IMG/VR virus record: IMGVR_UViG_3300048592_001391
Span: 1,513-65,512 of that record
DNA length: 64,000 bases
Strand: one strand, 5' to 3'
DNA from: a virus
Lineage: Duplodnaviria; Caudoviricetes
Positions 6,028-53,366 of the stretch are shown here, piece after piece; position 1 is the stretch's first letter, and every line of letters starts with the position of its first letter. Below the pieces are notes generated by a model. The model did not search any database. It was not told where the DNA came from and saw nothing but the letters and a program-made list of their open reading frames with translations. The position numbers and the translations under genes are program-made.

Positions 6028-6606
6028 CTAGTAGATTCCAGCAGCTTCGTAAATCCGCTCTTTTGCCGTAGTCACTTCGTCGTCCTGCGCTTCATACAGC
6101 GCAGCTTTCGCGTCGGAGTACCAGTGATAGAGCGCCATCACTTCGACTTCTCGCGCTGGCGTGGCGAATTTTATGCTGCCCATTTCTAGCCGCGATTCAA
6201 AATTATACGAGGTAATAGCGGGTAGTACCTTTGGATTCAGTTGGATTTGCTCCGCCCGTTGACGCAATTCTGCGTCAAGGGCAAAGAACTTATCCCCAAA
6301 CGCTTCGGATATTTCGGCTTCGGCCTTCCGCGCTTGAACCTGCGCACTCCACTCATCCCGACTGTAGCTATTGCCATACTTGGTCACATGCGATCCGCTG
6401 GCAAGACGGCCGTTGCTGTGCCCACTCGTTACATCGTAGGGGAATCTGCACCCGCGCCCAAAATCTTGCAAAGAAACAGGGATGCTCCATGTCTTTGTCG
6501 CCGAATCGAAGTTCCGCCCCTCAAACGATTTGACGAAATTCAGTGCGCTTTGAAAATCACCGCCGACCTCTACCATCCCATCTTTTAATTGAATCTTTAT
6601 TGCCAT
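6028..6606 (-). CDS. hypothetical protein, N-terminal HARP-like domain
   Basis: MAIKIQLK start; FVKSFEGRNFDSATKTWSIP motif. Confidence 0.65.
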   Translation of the reverse strand: MAIKIQLKDGMVEVGGDFQSALNFVKSFEGRNFDSATKTWSIPVSLQDFGRGCRFPYDVTSGHSNGRLASGSHVTKYGNSYSRDEWSAQVQARKAEAEISEAFGDKFFALDAELRQRAEQIQLNPKVLPAITSYNFESRLEMGSIKFATPAREVEVMALYHWYSDAKAALYEAQDDEVTTAKERIYEAAGIY

Positions 6607-6662
6607 CTTCGCATTCCTTTGCCCTGTCAGGCCAACCAAAATCAATAATCAAGTACAGATGA

Positions 6663-6691
6663 ATATTACCACATCACAAAAACAGTGTCAA
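6663..6691 (-). promoter_or_regulatory. Strong sigma70-type promoter for the HARP/SNF2/IbrAB operon
   Basis: Minus strand TTGACA-17 nt-TAATAT with extended TG. Confidence 0.8.
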
Positions 6692-6726
6692 GCGATTGGG
6701 CGCACATTTACCCACTATCCACCACG

Positions 6727-6762
6727 CAAAACAAAACGGCCGTACCCAAAGGCACGGCCGTT
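6727..6762 (-). terminator. Intrinsic terminator built from two ACGGCCGT palindromes
   Basis: Minus strand AACGGCCGTGCC-tttg-GGTACGGCCGTT then TTGTTTT, just after the 6798 stop. Confidence 0.7.
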
Positions 6763-6797
6763 ACATAACCAAAACTATAATAGTCTACGCAATCAAA

Positions 6798-7265
6798 TCA
6801 TGCCCACTCTAACCGGAAGGGTGGGGCGGTGGGGACGATCTCACCTTCCACACAGCTATAGCCCCAAGGCGCATCCTCCACGGCCGTATTTGCCCAACTC
6901 AGCCATTCTTCTGCTGCCCGGTCTACTCGCGCCTGCACCACAGCGGGCCACTCCGCATACCGGGCGGCAAAGCTCACCACGTCCGGTTCGGCCGTATCGT
7001 CCAGCGTATCGGCCACGTAGTCCCACACACGGCCGTCGTCCGCATCCACAAACACCCGCGCCAACTCTTCGGCTTCATCGGCATACAGCCCCAGGCGAAT
7101 CATCACCACGTACTCACCGGGCGGCACATCTTCTACACTGCCTGTCCAGCGGGTCACTGGCTGGCCGTCATCAATCACCAACCACCACTGACCATACGGC
7201 CGTACAACCATCCGGCTGACTATCTCACTCCGATCCAATAGCACCTTGCACTCTGTCTGTAACAT
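6798..7265 (-). CDS. hypothetical protein
   Basis: Likely start MLQTECKV (ATG 7265, SD GAAAGGA); the longer track ORF runs through the repeat locus. Confidence 0.6.
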   Translation of the reverse strand: MLQTECKVLLDRSEIVSRMVVRPYGQWWLVIDDGQPVTRWTGSVEDVPPGEYVVMIRLGLYADEAEELARVFVDADDGRVWDYVADTLDDTAEPDVVSFAARYAEWPAVVQARVDRAAEEWLSWANTAVEDAPWGYSCVEGEIVPTAPPFRLEWA

Positions 7266-7285
7266 GCTGCATCCTTTCTGCACCT

Positions 7286-7393
7286 TTAGGGTGTAGTCAT
7301 CCAATAGAACACACGCAGCGCCGCGTAGCTCAACACAATGCACAACACAATCTGAATGATCAATCCCTTCCGCCTGTCCCAAAACTCTCTCAT
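7286..7393 (-). CDS. small single-TM membrane protein (35 aa)
   Basis: SD GGAGG then MREFWDRRKGLIIQIVLCIVLSYAALRVFYWMTTP. Confidence 0.6.
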   Translation of the reverse strand: MREFWDRRKGLIIQIVLCIVLSYAALRVFYWMTTP

Positions 7394-7409
7394 AGCGACC
7401 TCCATCACT

Positions 7410-7616
7410 TGCGATTTGCGATTGCGATTTGACCTCAGACACACACCTATTTGACCCATTTTCGGCCGTTTTGCGATTCGCAAATCGCAATCGCAAACGC
7501 ATCGCAAAACGGCCGTCTACCTCTGGTAAATCTGCGATAATCCTGCGATTAAATCTGCGATAAGGGGGCTGTTCTGCGATTATCGCAAACATGGCCCCTT
7601 ATCGCAGCCAATCGCC
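7410..7616. repeat. TGCGAT/ATCGCA hexamer cluster (clt- or iteron-like) with 15-bp inverted repeat
   Basis: 13 exact copies counted by eye in about 200 bp; CGGCCGTTTTGCGAT (7463-7477) is the inverse of ATCGCAAAACGGCCG (7501-7515). Confidence 0.85.
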
Positions 7617-9593
7617 CTACCGACGACGCTTCAACAGCCTGTCCGCGTCGGTGTTGCCCTGCTGCGCCAACCATTCCAGCGCCGGGTACAGACGGCCGTC
7701 AAGGAACTGACCAGACGGCCGTTCACTGCTCTCATCACTCAGGAACGTTCCCGCCGCATTGACCGTGCGGAACTCCCGCAGGTAGGGCAGCAGTCTACGG
7801 CCGTCCATCTCCGCTTGGGTCATTTGCGGCTGTACGGGCTGCTGCACCACAGGCGGGGCAGGGGGAAGATTCACAACCGGCGCTCCCGCCTGCACCTGTA
7901 CCCGATCCGACATCACCCGAATGGCTGGAGTAGGCACAACCAAACCCTGCAACGAATCCGGTAGCTCATTCGGCCGTACTCGCGTCGAATCCAGCAGCGC
8001 CCCTACATCACCGCGCCCTGGGTAGAAGCCCACGGCCTCACCCGTACGGCCGTTGATGTTGTAGATGAAACGGCCGTTGGGCAAGCCCACCGAACCGGAA
8101 GCATAACCATCCTGCTTGCCCACATCCAAAAACGTCCGACTAGCGGCGGCACTGTTCATGCGGAAGCCGATGGTTGCCATTTGGCGGCGCAAGCGCATCC
8201 CGTGTTCACCCGCCGCGTCCTTTGTCGGGTCGGTCATGGAAACAGCCAGGAAGATGCCGTACTTCCGTGCCTCATTGGTAATGTTAATCAGGCGCAGCCA
8301 CATGATCGTAGCCTGGAACGTCAGGTCTTTGGCCGTGTCGTGCTCTCCGCTCAGCCGCGCCAATTCCGCCGCTTCCTTCGCCGCGCCGACAATCGTCAAG
8401 AACTCATCAATGGCAATCAGGATTTCCCCCGATTCACCCATCGCTTGCGGCAACTCCGACCAATTCCGGGCGCCAGTCCGCGCCAGCACACTGTCTCTCC
8501 GGTGCATCTCGCTTACCACAGCGTCCAGGAATTGCGCCAATGGCTCAATGAGCGCCAACGGCCGTAACGCAGGCCACACGGTCAAATTGGGCTGATTGGC
8601 GAACGGCGCGAAGTCAGAGCCACGGCCGTTGATGATGACCACATGGGTACTGTTGCGCCAGTTCCCGGCCACAAACGGGACCAACCCGGAAGCGGTCTTA
8701 CCCGCGCCCGTAGTCCCGGCCACCAGCAGGTGGGGATTCTGTGACCGATTGACAAACACAGGCATCTGGTTCTCGATGTCCACGCCAATGGGCACGGTAT
8801 CCGGGTCTGCGTGACGCATGAACATCGTCCAACTGGCGCGGGGCAGTCGCTTCGGGGCTTCAATGCCACTGGCAACAACCGGCTGTTGTGGGGCAGGGAG
8901 CGCCAATGTACTCATGCTGTTCCCGGCCAACATCGGCAAGGGCGACATCCCGCCACGGCCGTCCGGCACAATGGCAATCCGGTTGCCCATATGCTCCACA
9001 TGGTAGACGGGGTTACGGCTGCGAATCATGAGATAAGAGAATAGCCCAGCAGTGGTCATGCAGATAATCAGGAACACGCCCACCGCAAACGGGATTGCCT
9101 CGTTCCACATCTCCCGCCGCCGCTGCTCCGCCAATAACCGGTTCTGCTCCGCCTCGCGCAACATGCGCACATTCTGCATATGCTCCGCTTCGGCCGTCAT
9201 CTCCGCCATCACCATCGCCGCTTGCCGGGTAGCTGTCCCCTCGGCCACAATCGCATTTTGCGTTTGCACGGCCACCAATGCAATCTCGGTCGCCCGTACA
9301 CTCAAATCAGCGGCGGTGCTGGTAGCAGCGACGGCCGTACCGGTAGCAATGGCCTCAGATGTGCCAGTAGCGGCCACACGCGCCTGTTCGGTCGTCTGGA
9401 TAACCGCCTGGGTCGCGGCAATGGCCGCGTCATAGGTAGCGGCGGCATCCTGTGCCTGTCGGGCGGCAATCGTCGCATTGACGGCCGGATTACTCGGCGG
9501 CACAAGCGCACTCTGCGGCTGACCACCTGTCGCCGGAGGCGTGGCGCAACCGGCCAGAACCATCACCATGAGCAATCCGTAAATCCATCTCAT
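7617..9593 (-). CDS. Membrane-anchored FtsK/SpoIIIE (TraB-like) DNA translocase with lipoprotein signal
   Basis: MRWIYGLLMVMVLAGC lipobox, Ala/Thr-rich coil, TM helix, HLLVAGTTGAGKT Walker A, EMHRR, IAIDEF Walker B, EARKYGI; ATGA overlap with upstream gene. Confidence 0.85.
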   Translation of the reverse strand: MRWIYGLLMVMVLAGCATPPATGGQPQSALVPPSNPAVNATIAARQAQDAAATYDAAIAATQAVIQTTEQARVAATGTSEAIATGTAVAATSTAADLSVRATEIALVAVQTQNAIVAEGTATRQAAMVMAEMTAEAEHMQNVRMLREAEQNRLLAEQRRREMWNEAIPFAVGVFLIICMTTAGLFSYLMIRSRNPVYHVEHMGNRIAIVPDGRGGMSPLPMLAGNSMSTLALPAPQQPVVASGIEAPKRLPRASWTMFMRHADPDTVPIGVDIENQMPVFVNRSQNPHLLVAGTTGAGKTASGLVPFVAGNWRNSTHVVIINGRGSDFAPFANQPNLTVWPALRPLALIEPLAQFLDAVVSEMHRRDSVLARTGARNWSELPQAMGESGEILIAIDEFLTIVGAAKEAAELARLSGEHDTAKDLTFQATIMWLRLINITNEARKYGIFLAVSMTDPTKDAAGEHGMRLRRQMATIGFRMNSAAASRTFLDVGKQDGYASGSVGLPNGRFIYNINGRTGEAVGFYPGRGDVGALLDSTRVRPNELPDSLQGLVVPTPAIRVMSDRVQVQAGAPVVNLPPAPPVVQQPVQPQMTQAEMDGRRLLPYLREFRTVNAAGTFLSDESSERPSGQFLDGRLYPALEWLAQQGNTDADRLLKRRR

Positions 9594-10006
9594 TCCAGCC
9601 ATCCTGTTTCTTTCGGCGCTGGCAGTTGGGGCACAGTCGCCGGTTCCTCGATCCATGGTTGTTGGGGCACAACCAGCGGCTTTCCCGCATTCCCGCCGCC
9701 CTTGCGCTTCAACTCTTTCTTTAATAGCCGCGTCTCTTTCAGTATGCGGGGTAGGGGGGTTGCCAGCAGCAGCACGAACGCGGCAATCGTCACCAGCCCC
9801 AAGAACGGCAAGAGGATGGAACTGCTACGGCCGTTCCGCTCACTTTCCCGAAAGCGCACAATGTCCTCCATCGGATCGGCCTTCGTCTGCTCCTCCACCA
9901 TCATCATGGTTGCCTTGTCAATGGTAGGGGATAGGTGTCCCATCGTCACGGAACACCCGCCAACAATCACCGCCAGCAGAGCAAGGAGAAGTAATACCTT
10001 ATCCAT
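9590..10006 (-). CDS. membrane protein (signal/lipobox-like N-terminus plus TM)
   Basis: MDKVLLLLALLAVIVGGC and second hydrophobic helix; TAATG coupling. Confidence 0.7.
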   Translation of the reverse strand: MDKVLLLLALLAVIVGGCSVTMGHLSPTIDKATMMMVEEQTKADPMEDIVRFRESERNGRSSSILLPFLGLVTIAAFVLLLATPLPRILKETRLLKKELKRKGGGNAGKPLVVPQQPWIEEPATVPQLPAPKETGWLE

Positions 10007-10476
10007 TACAGCCCCCGTTCCCGCAGCCAGCGGCCAATTTGCTCCCGGCTCCAACGGCCGTCAATCTCGCGGTCTAGGATTTCTTCGCACAGGTCGTAGT
10101 ATGCCTGGCGGCTCATGCCCACAGCGCGGGCTACCATGTCCTGTGCCTTCTCTGCATCCATGCCAGCGCGGAGCTTACGGCCGTACAGCCCGGCGTAGAT
10201 GGTCGCCATCGTACTGGCTTGCACCCGTTCGCGCTCCCAAGAGAAGGTGTGGTCGCCACTGGCATAGGCGTCTGTGGTGTGTTCGGGGTAGTAAAGCCGA
10301 CCAATCCGCACGGCCGTAGATAGTCTACGGTCTCCGGTCAGTCGTGCGCTTAGTCGCCATAGGTGGGCTGCTATTGTTGTGTACATCTTGCCTCCGTTAC
10401 GGCCGTAACGGCCGTTGGTGATGTACAGCACTTCAGATACTATTGTGCAGGCTGCTGACTGGTGCTGTTCAGTCAT
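10006..10476 (-). CDS. hypothetical protein
   Basis: ORF coupled to downstream gene; start uncertain. Confidence 0.55.
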   Translation of the reverse strand: MTEQHQSAACTIVSEVLYITNGRYGRNGGKMYTTIAAHLWRLSARLTGDRRLSTAVRIGRLYYPEHTTDAYASGDHTFSWERERVQASTMATIYAGLYGRKLRAGMDAEKAQDMVARAVGMSRQAYYDLCEEILDREIDGRWSREQIGRWLRERGL

Positions 10477-10482
10477 TGGCCT

Positions 10483-10513
10483 GGCCGTATGGTGCTTGCC
10501 TCACCATACGGCC
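10483..10513. repeat. 12-bp intergenic hairpin with GGCCGT arms
   Basis: GGCCGTATGGTG-cttgcct-CACCATACGGCC. Confidence 0.7.
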
Positions 10514-10516
10514 GTT

Positions 10517-10762
10517 TTATTTGGGGTGGGAGCCACCACGAACCGGATGGATGTCTCCGCTCGACGGGTAGCCTCTGGCCTCCAGATACTCAGCCAGCGC
10601 CTCCCGGACAATGACCGCTTGGGTGGGGGGGATTCCGTGTTCCTCATAGAAGCCGCTCATGAACTGCTCCAGTGCTGCACCCAATGCAGTGGGCAGCACG
10701 ATAATGGGCAGTCGCTTTGTTTGCACCCGTGTCATTTGGTCGGTCTGGCTGGCTGTATCCAT
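10517..10762 (-). CDS. ribbon-helix-helix (CopG/Arc-like) regulator
   Basis: TKRLPIIVLPTALGAALEQF...PTQAVIVREALAEYL. Confidence 0.65.
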   Translation of the reverse strand: MDTASQTDQMTRVQTKRLPIIVLPTALGAALEQFMSGFYEEHGIPPTQAVIVREALAEYLEARGYPSSGDIHPVRGGSHPK

Positions 10763-10768
10763 AAGCGG

Positions 10769-10798
10769 ACTATATCATAATATATCGTTTGGCGTCAA
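10769..10798 (-). promoter_or_regulatory. sigma70 promoter, probably leaderless, for the RHH-FtsK operon
   Basis: TTGACG-18-TATAGT with extended TG; ATG follows 6 nt after the -10; no SD. Confidence 0.65.
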
Positions 10799-11121
10799 TC
10801 CCACTGCGCCACCAATCCAACGCAAAAAGACCAGATAAGCCCGTATCTGACGGCCGTATCTGGCTGATGCGCCTTGCGATGTAAGGTGCGATGTTAGTCG
10901 GCGTCGCCGAACTGATTAGCCTGAACGCACACAGACAGGGCGAGTATCGCAGAAACAATGAGCCAGAGAGATAGTAGCAGCAACATAGTGGGAAATTATA
11001 GCAGAACTGAGCGCCGATCCAGACTGACAAACGTCCCAATCTCGCCGATTTTCCGCCAAATTATAGATACCAATACATGTTACTTATCGGTACTTATAAA
11101 AACAGGACTGAAACAACATGG

Positions 11122-11166
11122 AACAATAAAGCCTAGCCAGTGGTGGAGGTGTCCACTGGCTAGGCT
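11122..11166 (-). terminator. Intrinsic terminator of the late/lysis operon
   Basis: 14-bp stem AGCCTAGCCAGTGG/CCACTGGCTAGGCT followed by TTATTGTT on minus, 25 nt after the endolysin stop. Confidence 0.75.
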
Positions 11167-11190
11167 GAGGAAAGGGAATCGGTAGGCTAT

Positions 11191-13707
11191 TTATGGGTGC
11201 TGACGGAACTCAATCAGCGTCCCCGGATAATGCTCGGTGTACCATTCGCGGTACTCTTGCTGCTCCATCGCAGCAATGTTCCACAACACGGCCGTCTTGC
11301 TTGCCAGCGCCCCAATGCCAGCATCATCGAACGATGGCCCAACCGTCACCTGTGCGTCACTCGCCATCGAATAAATCTTCGCCCGCACATCGGCGGCAAT
11401 GTGCCCCCCTACTACCCAATAGACACGGCCGTACTGCACACGCGGCTTGCCCTCGGGGATGTCAATGGTCGGTGGGTCTACGGGTGGCTCAACAGGCGGA
11501 TCAATGGGCGGGGTGACTGCCGTGCTACTCAGCGACCAGCCATCCACAAACACGCCACTGTTTTGCAGGGCAAAGTTGCAGCGTATTTGCAAGCCCACAG
11601 TCACCGGCCCGCCCTCACTGCTAAAGGTGTAGGCAATCTCGTTCCAGCGCCCTGGCGTCAGGGGTAGCCATTCCGTGTACGCGCCGTTCAGCCGGAACCG
11701 GTATTGCCCGTCACGCTGTTGCGGATCATTGGCCCACACCTTCCCGGCCTCGCCATACGCCTTCACCAGGTCGCCAAACACAGGAGCCTCAAACCGGTAA
11801 GAGCCTCGCGCCAAATGCACCTGCTGGCTGAGTTCCCCCCACCATGCGCCGTTGCCCTTGAAGATTTTGACGCACTGACGGCCGTCACGGATGAAGACGC
11901 CCTGTTCTGCCGGGGGCAACTGCTCACGCGGAATCACGCGCACTTCTGGGCGCACGTAGCCCGACCAGGCATTGCTGTCGTAGGGGTTGGCGGTAGGCGG
12001 GGTTGTCTCAAAGCTGAATGTCCAACCCTCGGGAATCTGCAACTCCGGTATCCCGTCCGGGTGGTACCAGCCACCCTCAAAGCTGCCGTTCACCAGCTCA
12101 GTCGGTACGGCCGTATCCTCGCCAATGTAGCGCCGCAAATCATCGGCACTGCCATTGAAGTAGTTGAGGTCAATGCCGTTTGACTGCGCCCCATACACTG
12201 GCCCCGGCCCGGTAGATGTGTACTGCCAGAATACCCACGTGTCCCACCCGGCCGGTAGCACAGGCGGTGGTGTAGCGCGGTAATTGGCAATCCACAAGTC
12301 ATACTCTTTGGCCCACGGCAAGCTGCCGAACTGGTTCCACCACCATGCGCCTGTGTAGACGATTGGCTTACGGCCGCTCAACATCTCCACTTGCAGCAGG
12401 AAGGTGCGCACTTCTTCTGCGTTCGGCGTCCCCTGCGTATCCTCGATGTCTGCCACCAGCGGCAACTCACCAAACCCGCCAGAACGCACAGTCGAAACAA
12501 AGTGCTGCGCCTGATTCTCCGGGCTGAACCCGTTGCGGAAGAAGTGGTACGCGCCTCGCGGAATGCCCGCCTTTTGCGCCTCTGCCCAATTACGGCCGTA
12601 TTGTGGGTCTACCCAGCTTTGCCCCTCTGTCGCCTTAATGAAAGCGAACTGAGCGCCAGCGGTTTTTGCCTTCTGCCAATCCATCACCCCTTGCCAGCGC
12701 GATACGTCAATGCCGCGCACGTTGCTGGCGGGTGGTTGCGGTGGTTCTGGGGGACGCGGTGCAGGGGTAGGCGTGGTACGCACGTACTCGCCCAACCGCC
12801 GCAAGATGCTCTCGTTAATCTCGAAGTAGCGCCACTGGCTTCCCCCACCAGAGGTAAACAGCACGGCGCCCAACAGCCGCCCTTCCCGCGCCGCTCGTGT
12901 GGCGGCAAGCAGTTCGTCCATGTCGGCGATGTCATCCAAGTAGGCGGTCTCGTCGCCGTTCCAGGCGGAGTTGTGCTTCCACCCGTCCAACGGCCGTGGG
13001 TTGTACCCGTCTGCCCCTGCCCCACAACATCCACTTTCACCCAACATCCAGTTTACACGGATGCCCCGCGTCACCAGGTAGTTGTCCACTTCCACCCAAC
13101 GCATATGCAAATCGCGCATATGAGGCGGGGAGTTGACGAACGATTGGCGCTGATGCACCGACCAGTAGCCATGATAGCCGAATGCGCCACCGGCAACGGC
13201 CGTTTCTCGCGCCAAATCCACCAGTGCCCCATACTCATTGTGATCCGGGTTGCCGACTGCGGCCGTAAACACCACCGGGCGCACACCGGGGCAGTGCAGT
13301 TTCAACCGCCGCACGAAGGCGCGGTCGAACTCCACAATCGCCCGCAGCTTGGTTGGGTTGCGTGTGGGGTACTCTTCGTTCAGGGATTCGACAAAGAGAC
13401 GGCCGTTGTCCACCGTGCCCATGTGCGTGTTGACGCTATCCTTAAACATGGCAATGTACTCATCTGCCGCCTGATTGCCCAACGCATGGGACTGCGCGGC
13501 CATGTCAATCCATCGCCCCTGATTGTGTTGATCCGCCCAAAAGCGGTAGATAAAGAAGATGCCCGGCGATGCGCTGTTGGCGTGGTGGTAATCCTCCGGG
13601 TGAAAGCTCTTGATTAGCCGGAACGGGGAGCCAGCAGCCTGCGCCAATCGCAACTGCTCATCCCACCCACGTACCGGGTCTTGCATGTGCAAGCCTATGT
13701 AGCTCAT
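11191..13707 (-). CDS. multidomain endolysin (central GH25 muramidase)
   Basis: GIDVSRWQG, FAFIKATEG, GAYHFF, LVADIE, FWQYTS, IDLNYF; N-terminal TIM-barrel-like region, CBM-like region, Pro-rich linkers. Confidence 0.9.
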   Translation of the reverse strand: MSYIGLHMQDPVRGWDEQLRLAQAAGSPFRLIKSFHPEDYHHANSASPGIFFIYRFWADQHNQGRWIDMAAQSHALGNQAADEYIAMFKDSVNTHMGTVDNGRLFVESLNEEYPTRNPTKLRAIVEFDRAFVRRLKLHCPGVRPVVFTAAVGNPDHNEYGALVDLARETAVAGGAFGYHGYWSVHQRQSFVNSPPHMRDLHMRWVEVDNYLVTRGIRVNWMLGESGCCGAGADGYNPRPLDGWKHNSAWNGDETAYLDDIADMDELLAATRAAREGRLLGAVLFTSGGGSQWRYFEINESILRRLGEYVRTTPTPAPRPPEPPQPPASNVRGIDVSRWQGVMDWQKAKTAGAQFAFIKATEGQSWVDPQYGRNWAEAQKAGIPRGAYHFFRNGFSPENQAQHFVSTVRSGGFGELPLVADIEDTQGTPNAEEVRTFLLQVEMLSGRKPIVYTGAWWWNQFGSLPWAKEYDLWIANYRATPPPVLPAGWDTWVFWQYTSTGPGPVYGAQSNGIDLNYFNGSADDLRRYIGEDTAVPTELVNGSFEGGWYHPDGIPELQIPEGWTFSFETTPPTANPYDSNAWSGYVRPEVRVIPREQLPPAEQGVFIRDGRQCVKIFKGNGAWWGELSQQVHLARGSYRFEAPVFGDLVKAYGEAGKVWANDPQQRDGQYRFRLNGAYTEWLPLTPGRWNEIAYTFSSEGGPVTVGLQIRCNFALQNSGVFVDGWSLSSTAVTPPIDPPVEPPVDPPTIDIPEGKPRVQYGRVYWVVGGHIAADVRAKIYSMASDAQVTVGPSFDDAGIGALASKTAVLWNIAAMEQQEYREWYTEHYPGTLIEFRQHP

Positions 13708-50856: not shown

Positions 50857-52045
50857 CGTTCTTCTCCAATGGGTCACGGCCGACAGCGGCCACAACCTCC
50901 TGCCAGAACTGAACCAAATTATCTCGCCCCGATACGGCCGTCCGCTTTGCCAGCAGGTCCGCCCGTTCCGGCGCATACCATTCCACCCACCCGCACAGCA
51001 CCGACCGAATCATCCAGCGGTCAACGGCCGTCTCCCGCCCCGCATGGAACCGGGCAATGCCCCGCACCAGGCCGGGGAAGCGGTCGGCGTGTTCTTGCCA
51101 GTTGGCAAAGATACGGCCGTCTGCCGCGTCATACACCACAGCGGAAAGCTCCGGGCGCTGTTGTAGCAGTGGGGTAATCTCATCCCGCTTGTGCAAGAAC
51201 TGGTAACGGTAAGCGCAGCGGCGGCGTTCTTCGTTCCGCAGCTTGTCCACATGCCACATGGGGATGCCAACCGCCCGCGCCAGAACAAGGAACGCATCCC
51301 CGTCTACGCTCCAATCCAGCGGCGTGTACCCGCCCTTACCGGAGAAGACACGGAAGGCCATCGCGTCAGAGCGCAGCACCCGCCAATTGTTCCAGCGCAC
51401 GGCCGGTAAGCGTCCCCGGTAGATGTTCATGGTCACGGTACGGCCGTCCACCCCATGCCAGCGGGCCACCTGCCCCACCGACCACCACGCATCATCCCAC
51501 TGCGCCATGCGCACGGAGATCATGCGGCGCAGAGATTCGTTCTGGATGCTCTGGAGATTTAGCACGAACACAAAGTTCTCCGGTCGCAGAATCCAGCGGT
51601 AAAAGATGGGCACATCCACCATGTGAATCCCGGCCACCGTCTCCCGTGCCGGCAGTCCGTATTCGTGGATCAGGCGCTTCACCTTCTTGCCACACCAGCC
51701 CATCATGTCGCCCACTGCCCGCGCCGATAGTTCCCGATGCGGCGCCACTTTGGTGGGAGCAGGTACGCCAAAGCGCATACGGCGAATCTTCACCGCATCT
51801 TTCGAGCGCCCCAACCGCTGCCCCAACTCATCATTGGACAGGTGGGCGTTTTGCCGGAGATAGGACATCTCGGCGGGCGTCCAGGGCGTGTTGCGCCCCG
51901 TCTGCTGGTAGGCAGTCTGATGCCGCTCCACCAGCGCCTTGCTTCCTCGCGCTGCCACCAGTGCCGGGGCTATGCCAGACTCCAACTGGCCGATGGTAAT
52001 GGCCTCTTCCAAGAACGAATCATCCAACACGCTCCACGCACTCAT
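50849..52045 (-). CDS. multi-HTH DNA-binding protein
   Basis: WTPAEMSYL..ELGQRLGRSKDAVK, SARAVGDMMG, SVGQVARWHGV. Confidence 0.65.
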   Translation of the reverse strand: MSAWSVLDDSFLEEAITIGQLESGIAPALVAARGSKALVERHQTAYQQTGRNTPWTPAEMSYLRQNAHLSNDELGQRLGRSKDAVKIRRMRFGVPAPTKVAPHRELSARAVGDMMGWCGKKVKRLIHEYGLPARETVAGIHMVDVPIFYRWILRPENFVFVLNLQSIQNESLRRMISVRMAQWDDAWWSVGQVARWHGVDGRTVTMNIYRGRLPAVRWNNWRVLRSDAMAFRVFSGKGGYTPLDWSVDGDAFLVLARAVGIPMWHVDKLRNEERRRCAYRYQFLHKRDEITPLLQQRPELSAVVYDAADGRIFANWQEHADRFPGLVRGIARFHAGRETAVDRWMIRSVLCGWVEWYAPERADLLAKRTAVSGRDNLVQFWQEVVAAVGRDPLEKNDE

Positions 52046-53004
52046 CCCGGAACCTCCATCATGAAGTGCAACTTGCGCAGCATTTGCGGCAATGGGCATT
52101 GGCGGCAAGTGACGGCCGAACGACGGCCGTCCTGATCCTGAATACACCGCTTGCATGTCTGGCCAACAGACTCCATGAACACATGCCAACCCGGCTCCGC
52201 CACCCCCACCGGCGCTACCTGACAAGCCGAGCACGTCCGGTTCGCGGCGAAACGAATCGAGCTATCCCATCCCAAGGGAACATCATGCGCCGGGGGAGCG
52301 CCCAACCCAAAGGCCAGCGCCACAGCCGGTACGGCCGTCTCGCCATCATCAATCTGCTGGTCAAGCACCCGGTCTATGGCCGCTTCCACTGTCTGCACAA
52401 TCGTCTTGATGGTCGCGCCTTTCTCGGCAAACTTGGTGGCAAACTTGATCTGCAACTCCGCAGTAGGTAGACGGTTCAACGCTTGCGGAACCGAATGGGT
52501 GAGAGGCAAGCGGCGCATCGCGGCAAGCTGCTGCACTTCCTCGGGCAGTTCCAGCCAGGCCAGCGCCCCATTGACATATTGATTGTGCTTGCCGGTCAGG
52601 GCACACAGCTTTACCCTGCTCATCGGCTTCCCGTCATGCTCCATCTGAAGCATCGCGGCAAAGGCGCGGGCTTCTTCGATGACCGTCAGGTTTTGCCGTT
52701 TGTCGTTCTCCTCGTACTGCACAAGGAACGTTTCCAGCGGCGTCCGCTCTATCTCGCCGCCATTGCGTACCACCGCCTGTACCGTAGGCAACCCGGCCAA
52801 CTGGCAAGCCCGCCAGCGCCGCTCACCGTGTACCAACTGGTAACGGCCGTCATCGGTCGGCACAACTTCCACCGGCTGGAGCTGGCCGTACTGCTTAATG
52901 GAATCGGCTAACGCTTGCAGGGCATCGCCGTCAAAGTGTTGGCGCGGCTGATTGGGATCGGGGTCAATCAGGGCCACATGGATTTGTTTCAATAAGTCGT
53001 TCAC
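52042..53004 (-). CDS. ParB/RepB/Spo0J family protein
   Basis: PDPNQPRQHF, LADSIKQYGQLQP, GERRWRA, ENDKRQNL..IEEA; Cys-rich C-terminus. Confidence 0.9.
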   Translation of the reverse strand: MNDLLKQIHVALIDPDPNQPRQHFDGDALQALADSIKQYGQLQPVEVVPTDDGRYQLVHGERRWRACQLAGLPTVQAVVRNGGEIERTPLETFLVQYEENDKRQNLTVIEEARAFAAMLQMEHDGKPMSRVKLCALTGKHNQYVNGALAWLELPEEVQQLAAMRRLPLTHSVPQALNRLPTAELQIKFATKFAEKGATIKTIVQTVEAAIDRVLDQQIDDGETAVPAVALAFGLGAPPAHDVPLGWDSSIRFAANRTCSACQVAPVGVAEPGWHVFMESVGQTCKRCIQDQDGRRSAVTCRQCPLPQMLRKLHFMMEVPG

Positions 53005-53366
53005 AGTAGTTCCTCCAATAGTTCGCTGGCCCACTCCACATTGGCATGGGCCGCAAGGTGACGTTGATAATTACTGCCGGTCACGGCAATCTCCTTGCCG
53101 CACTCAGGGCAGGAAGCAATCCGGCTAATGCGTTGATACGGCCGTCCGGTGCGCTCATTGCACAGGGCAGAGGTACGCAGGGCATCCTCCCGCCGCTGCT
53201 GCACCAGGCGTTCCAAATCCACTCGGGCAACAGCCTTGTAGCCAAATAGCTCATGGATGGTCACGCCGTAAGCCGCCACCGTACTCCACACAGCATTGGC
53301 GGAGACACCCAAGGCGCGGGCTACTTCTCCACTTGTTGCATAATCTGCAATAGTTGAGCTAGGCAT
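53001..53366 (-). CDS. HTH plus C2H2-like zinc finger protein
   Basis: SGEVARALGVS, CPECGK...HLAAH. Confidence 0.6.
   Translation of the reverse strand: MPSSTIADYATSGEVARALGVSANAVWSTVAAYGVTIHELFGYKAVARVDLERLVQQRREDALRTSALCNERTGRPYQRISRIASCPECGKEIAVTGSNYQRHLAAHANVEWASELLEELL

Follow-up and report, generated by a model that had tools for sequence, protein, structure and literature searches.

A putative DNA-translocation module has been recognized in the genome of a tailed phage, within a stretch of 64,000 nt (hereafter, the window) that covers positions 1,513 to 65,512 of the IMG/VR record IMGVR_UViG_3300048592_001391. The module lies on the minus strand (10798-6735), downstream of the endolysin gene, and its central product is a lipoprotein-anchored ATPase of the FtsK/SpoIIIE type, whose gene is followed at once by an array of short repeats. 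Judged from the sequences, what is new here is an ATPase family with downstream arrays whose repeat core tracks a C-terminal domain of about 70 amino acids (aa). With somewhat more belief than doubt, we read the module as a sequence-specific membrane pump for double-stranded DNA (dsDNA), with its own loading site beside the gene.

The ATPase matches the Pfam family PF01580 (FtsK_SpoIIIE) with an E-value of 5.5e-7 and a score of 29.7 bits, the cut-off being 24, and its label in PHROGs is FtsK/SpoIIIE-like (6e-18); no match to FtsK_alpha was found in Pfam. The protein starts with a lipoprotein signal, followed by a helical stretch of about 150 residues and a transmembrane (TM) helix; a linker then leads into the motor, from which a disordered linker extends to a compact four-helix domain of about 70 residues. 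The lipobox (LAGC, with Cys16), the Walker A motif (G293-T300) and the Walker B motif (D396-E397) are invariant in all 17 aligned homologues, and a single Walker pair exists in the 658 aa. These features bear out the description of a lipoprotein- and TM-anchored FtsK/SpoIIIE ATPase in the first-pass annotation, which had been made from the sequence alone. The AlphaFold model contains a single motor domain; its mean predicted local distance difference test score (pLDDT) is 67, with values of 75-92 in the motor part. The outer domain was modelled at low confidence as a helical hairpin (helices 36-89 and 95-191; pLDDT 34-56 up to about aa 130 and 64-80 over aa 131-190), which we take to be comparable with those of AcrA/MacA. 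A Foldseek search with the motor gave Escherichia coli FtsK (2ius; E-value = 2.9e-11), TcpA (3.3e-10) and EssC (2.8e-8), followed by weaker matches to other EssC/EccC proteins, and comparison of the motor profile with the PDB gave FtsK at 3e-11 and EccC at 8e-10. FtsK came first in every sequence, fold and profile search of the motor; the structural and profile check that had been proposed for 7617..9593 thus puts the FtsK DNA translocases ahead of EssC/EccC.

Thirteen copies of TGCGAT/ATCGCA, exactly the number first reported, are contained in 7410-7606, a non-coding stretch of about 200 bp in which the first copy lies 11 nt past the stop codon of the ATPase gene. The inverted repeat reported with them is present, but its length is 17 nt (100% complementary; 7415-7431 / 7481-7497) and not 15; a second inverted repeat, of 18 nt at 94%, was also found. 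Among 2,551 overlapping 250-nt windows, the array ranks first for the most repeated hexamer (13 copies), and the next-ranked ones (7-9 copies) are all due to ACGGCC, which comes from the palindrome ACGGCCGT. Over the 64 kb, TGCGAT/ATCGCA exists in 41 copies against 44 expected, hence it shows no window-wide enrichment, and 12 of the 22 matches to the longer form yTGCGATw fall inside the array. The 28 copies outside the array have a strand skew of 21:7, which is matched by 26.5% of comparable hexamers; a polarity like that of the FtsK orienting polar sequences (KOPS) was accordingly rejected for them, the skew being ordinary for the window.

Loci with homologues of the ATPase were drawn from viral contigs, species genomes and one metagenome, and 23 of them were scored by counting four repeat cores in the 500 nt downstream of each ATPase gene. 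Four others, namely two fragments (L096 and L104) and two with a disrupted C-terminus (L097 and L109), were left out of this table, and none of them showed a cluster. In all six of the sources comprising the window and the five first loci, the densest TGCGAY window is located downstream of the homologue; the weak relative L003 has no TGCGAY cluster. The first-pass annotation had suggested checking homologues for a neighbouring cluster of repeats co-varying with the C-terminal domain, and such arrays were found at 15 of the 23 loci, with four domain types and four cores. Type A, with a C-terminal domain like that of the window, has the core RTCGCA at 7/7 loci (5-13 copies, with 0-1 of the other cores); type B, with a variant domain, has GTCGTA at 4/4 loci (7-11 GTCGT); type C, with an unrelated C-terminus resembling a helix-turn-helix (HTH), has RGTACY at 3/3 loci (GTAC-core sites); and type D, with another unrelated C-terminus, has GTAGCA at its one locus (8 GTAGC). 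The type C counts take the palindromic core on both strands, and inspection by eye gave eight GTAC-core sites in about 190 nt at L091. The counts of cores that do not belong to the domain type are 0-2.

The domain of type B is homologous to that of type A (hhalign 96.9%, E-value = 1.7e-10), and that of type D is not (1.1%). The array type tracks the C-terminal domain across motors that are 34-61% identical, and the clearest case is offered by L093 (type D) and L006 (type A): their motors are 87% identical over 453 aa, their C-termini are unrelated and their arrays are different. The DNA of these two loci is 90.5% identical over 1,323 nt, and the similarity stops at the linker ahead of the C-terminal domain. 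In the tree of motor cores, L093 and L006 form a pair (100/100) next to type B, with the other type A motors placed elsewhere; the array therefore follows the C-terminal domain and not the motor. A 6.8-Mb Chloroflexota genome (G504) contains three copies of the module (L093 of type D, and L105 and L110 of type B), which suggests several co-resident elements with separate specificities. Because this one genome harbors three copies with two specificities, a host protein is disfavored as the reader of the arrays.

The arrays of types A and B have a common plan, in which a central ACC-AGA-GGT, of either orientation, separates a first block of sites from an inverted one; after about 40 nt of spacer, often with GGGTGTGTG, come three more sites and then a gene for a small membrane protein. 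Two of these sequences, namely ACC-AGA-GGT between the inverted blocks and AAA(A/T)GGGTGTGTG about 40-50 nt beyond, are kept across different repeat types; they exist at 7519-7527 and about 7430-7445 in the window, and in the same places in L001, L002, L006, L094, L095 and L110. Some loci have further repeats. In L110 and L105, the stop codon of the type B ATPase gene is immediately followed by tandem copies of a G-rich 8-mer (GGGAGACA-like), about 20 units in L110 and about 6 in L105, its paralogue in the same genome, and L094 and L103 carry G-rich tandem units of other kinds in this position. In L002, a small Cys-rich (zinc-ribbon-like) open reading frame (ORF) and a terminator-like hairpin are located between the ATPase stop codon and the array (9525-9780).

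If the module is such a pump, the C-terminal domain would bind the array, a recognition that their co-variation supports, and this binding would load a hexameric motor onto the phage's own dsDNA at the membrane, where ATP hydrolysis would drive the phage DNA through. The DNA would most likely be directed to the septum, either to enter the adjoining cell of a host from the filamentous Chloroflexota or to cross a septum that is closing as the cell divides, and the lipid-anchored outer hairpin might, as a speculation, line the passage through the wall. A promoter and a terminator of its own, together with the temperate nature of its complete relatives, mean that the module could act from the prophage or from an excised genome. 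To true cell-to-cell spread our analysis would give about half the credence given to the pump. Its fullest form, which we hold to be doubtful, would be a second, virion-free route of spread, in which a hexamer on a private array pumps the genome through the septum, six hairpins form the wall passage and swappable readers stop cross-mobilisation between co-resident phages.

The nearest parallel is the transfer system of Streptomyces plasmids (pSVH1, pIJ101 and pSAM2 type). In PMC4447253, clt is described as 8-bp repeats next to traB that are read by the C-terminus of TraB, and the TraB motor as pumping the plasmid into the recipient and onward through septal cross walls. The module resembles this system in its single FtsK-like membrane ATPase, in the short-repeat cluster located at the translocase gene's 3' end or past it, with the C-terminus as the proposed reader, and in its operon with translationally coupled small membrane proteins and a small gene for a possible regulator at the head. 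However, we could not find any sequence relation past the P-loop fold: a tblastn search of 72,556 PLSDB plasmids gave one Bacillus record (25% identity, E-value = 4e-4) and no TraB, and in NCBIfam the ATPase matches the P-loop only, far below the cut-offs. The carrier here is a tailed temperate Chloroflexota phage and not an actinomycete plasmid, and the repeats are of 6-7 bp in both orientations, whereas those of clt are direct and of 8 bp. The ATPase has a lipoprotein signal, a helical outer domain and one TM helix, a topology different from that of TraB; the first-pass annotation had rightly remarked that the lipobox is atypical. Among the 81-, 156-, 138-, 35- and 155-aa products of the module, neither a GntR-type TraR nor a recognisable Spd protein nor any other family match was found in Pfam, PHROGs and NCBIfam, so that the earlier Kor and Spd identifications are not upheld by homology. 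In short, the evidence (the co-variation of repeat and domain, and the FtsK motor) supports a module that works like TraB/clt but is no TraB homologue; of the label TraB/clt-like, the logic is retained, and membership in the TraB family, given the plasmid search, is not.

Several points weigh against the pump. The gap between the FtsK and EccC profiles is small, and the fold alone cannot decide between DNA and protein transport. The C-terminal domain fits no family in Pfam, either within the whole protein or in six C-terminal sequences, and gave no Foldseek match at an E-value up to 0.001; the gamma domain of FtsK (PF09397) gave no Pfam match, and hhalign to the PF09397-bearing P0032 gave 0.3%. 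The solved folds nearest to the C-terminal model (VIA) are nearly all winged-helix DNA-binding domains (Z = 3.6-4.6), possibly just a common arrangement, so that a winged-helix fold is weakly suggested by the model. No array lies within 500 nt at eight of the 23 loci, whose C-termini are of other types or missing, and L007 has none within 6 kb. The repeat motifs were counted in the very regions from which they had been derived, and the loci within a type are kin, so that the independent events are few. Moreover, once the similarity of L006 and L093 has ended ahead of the C-terminal domain, none returns over the 700 nt that are left, which run past the array to the contig end, and because the replacement thus extends past the array, linkage to a downstream gene could give the same pattern. 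The cores of types A, B and D, set in one frame, differ by one base though the domain of type D is unrelated, which is odd if the C-terminal domain alone sets the specificity. Finally, a filamentous host is assumed from the class name Anaerolineae on the records of two metagenome-assembled genomes (MAGs).

The same evidence from motor and cis-site would serve equally for segregation or anchoring, in which the array would be centromere-like and the motor would keep or clear an excised or episomal genome at septa, much as SpoIIIE/FtsK clear trapped DNA; this would serve vertical inheritance, with no transfer to a phage-free cell. A ParB of the window (52042-53034) and ParA near the module in L004, L113 and L001 would fit a plasmid-like stage, but ParA and ParB would already give partition, and a lipid-anchored outer domain of about 150 aa would be superfluous within one cell. 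Such an episomal stage is, moreover, hypothetical: the window comes from a record classed as a provirus, and integrases are encoded in the complete relatives. We regard this alternative as unlikely. The chances appear slimmer for a regulatory array, that is, for operators, a promoter region or an iteron-type origin that is linked to the 3' end of the ATPase gene and read by another protein; the candidate readers would be the 81-aa ribbon-helix-helix (RHH)-like protein, a downstream product, or the DUF2637-winged-helix protein found in relatives. Short repeats in both orientations near a gene start resemble the arrangement of ParR/omega-type operator-centromeres, and the final repeat block, with three ATCGCA copies, ends about 17 nt ahead of the start codon of the 35-aa gene. 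The replacement past the array in L006/L093 and the cores one base apart despite unrelated domains, as mentioned above, also favor it. However, the consensus scan gave no sigma-70-like promoter within 7400-7620, the module promoter contains no TGCGAT copy (those closest to it lie 77-150 nt upstream of the -35), and near the RHH-like gene of L001 there is one TGCGAY copy. The downstream products, in turn, are tiny TM peptides without relatives, and the array type follows the C-terminal domain across diverged motors.

Two-step entry of the genome occurs in T5 or phi29, and a motor made from the first-entering DNA could bind the array and pull in the rest of the genome. This would account for a membrane motor with a site on its own DNA, and the outer domain could meet the tail tip, but no link exists between the module and the virion proteins, and in the complete relatives G003 and G004 the module lies at least 17 kb from the record ends (a weak point, since these ends may be circular-permutation assembly artefacts); we think entry highly improbable. 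The least credible to us, with hardly any weight, is a protein-export ATPase of type VII (EccC/EssC) with repeats unrelated to it. EccC and EssC are among the motor matches, and the invariant C-terminal Trp of the 138-aa partner protein could be a docking signal; yet the ATPase has one P-loop domain, not three or four, its searches put FtsK first, and the conserved, co-varying DNA array beside the gene would be left unexplained. PADLOC gave P-loop-local SspH/mad8 matches only; a role in defence was set aside, since defence does not need a site on the element's own DNA.

Other FtsK-family proteins resemble the ATPase in part. The FtsK/SpoIIIE translocases are its best match by sequence and fold, and they too have a small C-terminal domain past a flexible linker. 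However, the ATPase is without the gamma domain and is held by a lipid anchor and a single TM helix where those have a polytopic N-domain, and its motif is clustered (13 of 41 copies in 200 bp), not dispersed and polar as in KOPS and the SpoIIIE recognition sequences (SRS). TcpA (Clostridium pCW3) and EccC/EssC share the FtsK-family fold, but TcpA acts together with a relaxase, an oriT and a channel of several proteins, none of which was seen here, and EccC/EssC export proteins with three or four tandem P-loop domains, whereas one Walker A/B pair exists here. The FtsK-like genes of phages are treated as accessory, with no role assigned, in the available portions of PMC3706429 and PMC8597652, and the authors of the former presumed, in the same portion, that the phage protein acts on phage DNA. 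The FtsK-like proteins of Cluster J mycobacteriophages and Bacillus phages are likewise phage-borne motors with a divergent DNA-binding C-terminus, but those of Cluster J lack a membrane domain, and no cognate site is reported for them in that part of PMC3706429. Among the papers listed by full-text literature searches, none describes a phage FtsK-like protein that is anchored as a lipoprotein and has a co-varying array beside its gene.

If septal transfer is true, one-motor transport of DNA across septa would have evolved or been taken up repeatedly wherever cells stay joined. To our knowledge, single-protein dsDNA conjugation has so far been a speciality of mycelial actinomycetes. A virus could then spread along a filament without lysis or particles, blurring the distinction between phage and conjugative element, and a function would be given to a large unannotated family (790 clusters). 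Exchangeable reader domains with matching arrays would form a natural series for studying the site-specific loading of FtsK-type motors.

The ATPase belongs to a large, mostly viral family of Chloroflexota. A word-indexed search gave 32 relatives, the two named records among them being Anaerolineae and Chloroflexi MAGs. In an exhaustive search of 1.84 billion cluster representatives, the 790 clusters (50% identity) were obtained at an E-value up to 0.001, 157 of them below 1e-10 and 50 below 1e-30. A lipobox-like Cys follows a hydrophobic stretch in 126 of 151 full-length members, and in the ESM Atlas the ATPase cluster is 58% viral and neighbours Chloroflexota clusters. The distribution is patchy, fitting prophage cargo: of 401 genomes sampled from one carrier's phylum, only the carrier itself has a member, and within its order 14 of 167 genomes do. 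The complete viral relatives G003 and G004 carry tyrosine integrases and have the module at 55.3-56.9 of 73.6 kb and 20.7-22.4 of 56.2 kb, respectively. A scan of viral contigs for distant members gave mainly ATPase-only relatives, L007, without an array, being the sole full-length one; the viral contigs gave no match to P0022. A carrier without virion genes, like the actinomycete integrative and conjugative elements, was sought near the homologues in two MAGs, but the neighbourhoods contain a P22-type antirepressor and ParA and look like the viral contig L001, and no non-phage carrier was found. ParA-type ATPases are encoded a few kb from the module in L001 (12586-13482; N-terminal sequence only), L004 (16094-17008) and L113 (16760-17512), and the window itself encodes the ParB mentioned above, with ParB_N and HTH_ParB domains; together they hint that this group of phages passes through a plasmid-like stage. 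In MAG copies of the module, namely L004 (8090-9049), L113 (8741-9586) and G001:C43:15450-15805, the gene just upstream of the partner/ATPase pair encodes a DUF2637 membrane domain joined to a winged helix-turn-helix; this gene is absent from the window and precedes one type C copy. DUF2637 is linked to actinomycete conjugative elements, and the fusion protein could be another membrane-tethered DNA binder acting on the array.

The features of the module are listed in Table 1. The first-pass annotation had given the module its own promoter and terminator, and both are present as consensus matches, in a scan that gave 6 promoter-like sites against 3.3 expected and 7 terminator-like sites against 5.7 expected. 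The membrane protein and the 35-aa TM peptide of that annotation were likewise recovered as ORFs. Stop and start codons overlap at 10004-10008 (TAATG; 156-aa/138-aa genes) and at 9590-9593 (ATGA; 138-aa/ATPase genes), because of which the 156-, 138- and 658-aa genes are probably translated as a unit. The 138-aa partner has an N-terminal signal or anchor with an invariant Cys18, an outer segment of about 45 aa (PT[IV]D, TDP), one TM helix, and a basic, Pro-rich tail ending in the invariant Trp. Relatives of it immediately precede the ATPase gene in groups A and B (eight sequences aligned), and a comparable membrane protein precedes the type C ATPase genes. The predicted complex of the partner with the ATPase scored 0.30 against a mark of 0.32, which weighs neither way on their binding.

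Table 1. Features of the module and its surroundings (window positions)
Feature	Position	Strand	Basis and remarks
GH25 endolysin	11191-13707		Family match
Sigma-70-like promoter of the module	10769..10798	-	TTGACG-18-TATAGT, TG-extended, 10/12 matches; consensus match only
81-aa small protein	10517..10762	-	RHH-like by pattern only; possible regulator
156-aa hypothetical protein	10006..10476	-	True start may be internal
138-aa bitopic membrane partner	9590..10006	-	ORF 9590-10054, best start 10006
658-aa lipoprotein-anchored FtsK/SpoIIIE-type ATPase	7617..9593	-	ORF 7617-9656, best start 9593
ATPase: lipobox Cys16, then Ala/Thr/Gln-rich helical outer domain (aa 17-169) and single TM helix (~aa 170-192)	9018..9548	-	Alignment and model
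ATPase: FtsK-type motor domain (aa 250-555)	7929..8846	-	Fold and profile matches
ATPase: exchangeable C-terminal four-helix domain (aa 590-658), proposed array reader	7620..7826	-	Model pLDDT 87
cis array, 13 copies of yTGCGATw	7410..7606	both orientations	Blocks around ACCAGAGGT (7519-7527)
35-aa TM peptide	7286..7393	-	GGAGG ribosome-binding site 7 nt upstream
155-aa acidic protein, last gene before terminator	6798..7265	-	ORF; absent from the first-pass annotation
Terminator-like hairpin	6735..6762	-	12 pairs from two ACGGCCGT palindromes, then T run; consensus match only
Second strong promoter match, opening the next operon	6691-6663

The remaining small products have few relatives. The 81-aa protein gave no match in Pfam, PHROGs and NCBIfam and nothing meaningful in the PDB, so that its earlier RHH label remains a guess; its sole relative among the compared loci is the gene at the same place in L001 (46% identity over 48 aa). 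The 156-aa protein has no family match in Pfam, PHROGs, NCBIfam, PADLOC and the PDB, and the 155-aa protein none in NCBIfam and PADLOC; neither of them, nor the 35-aa peptide, has a sequence relative in the compared loci. A small TM or lipoprotein ORF also follows the array in L006, L093 and L095. Between the endolysin gene and the module promoter, a gap of 430 bp (10763-11190) contains a terminator-like hairpin after the endolysin gene, TGCGAT at 10875, 10887 and 10946, and a 30-aa hydrophobic ORF (10894-10986).

The window constitutes nearly all of a 65.5-kb single-contig record, which is classed as a provirus in IMG/VR and is 77% complete. Almost all of its genes are on the minus strand, and those of a tailed phage include tape measure, major head protein, large terminase and Mu-type portal. 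Neither the ATPase (by tblastn) nor 10 kb of module DNA matched a collection of 50,697 phage records, and Rfam gave no match in 6500-11300 at an E-value up to 1. A search of sequencing runs gave one DNA run with a 0.07 share of words and no RNA run. The palindrome ACGGCCGT exists in 218 copies in the 64 kb against 1.8 expected (0/100 shuffles), and paired copies build the hairpins at 6735-6762 and 10482-10514. ACGGCC is the top hexamer in the window, L001, L002 and L004, but not in L007, and ACGGCCGT/ACGGCC looks like a host-lineage signature common to these phages.

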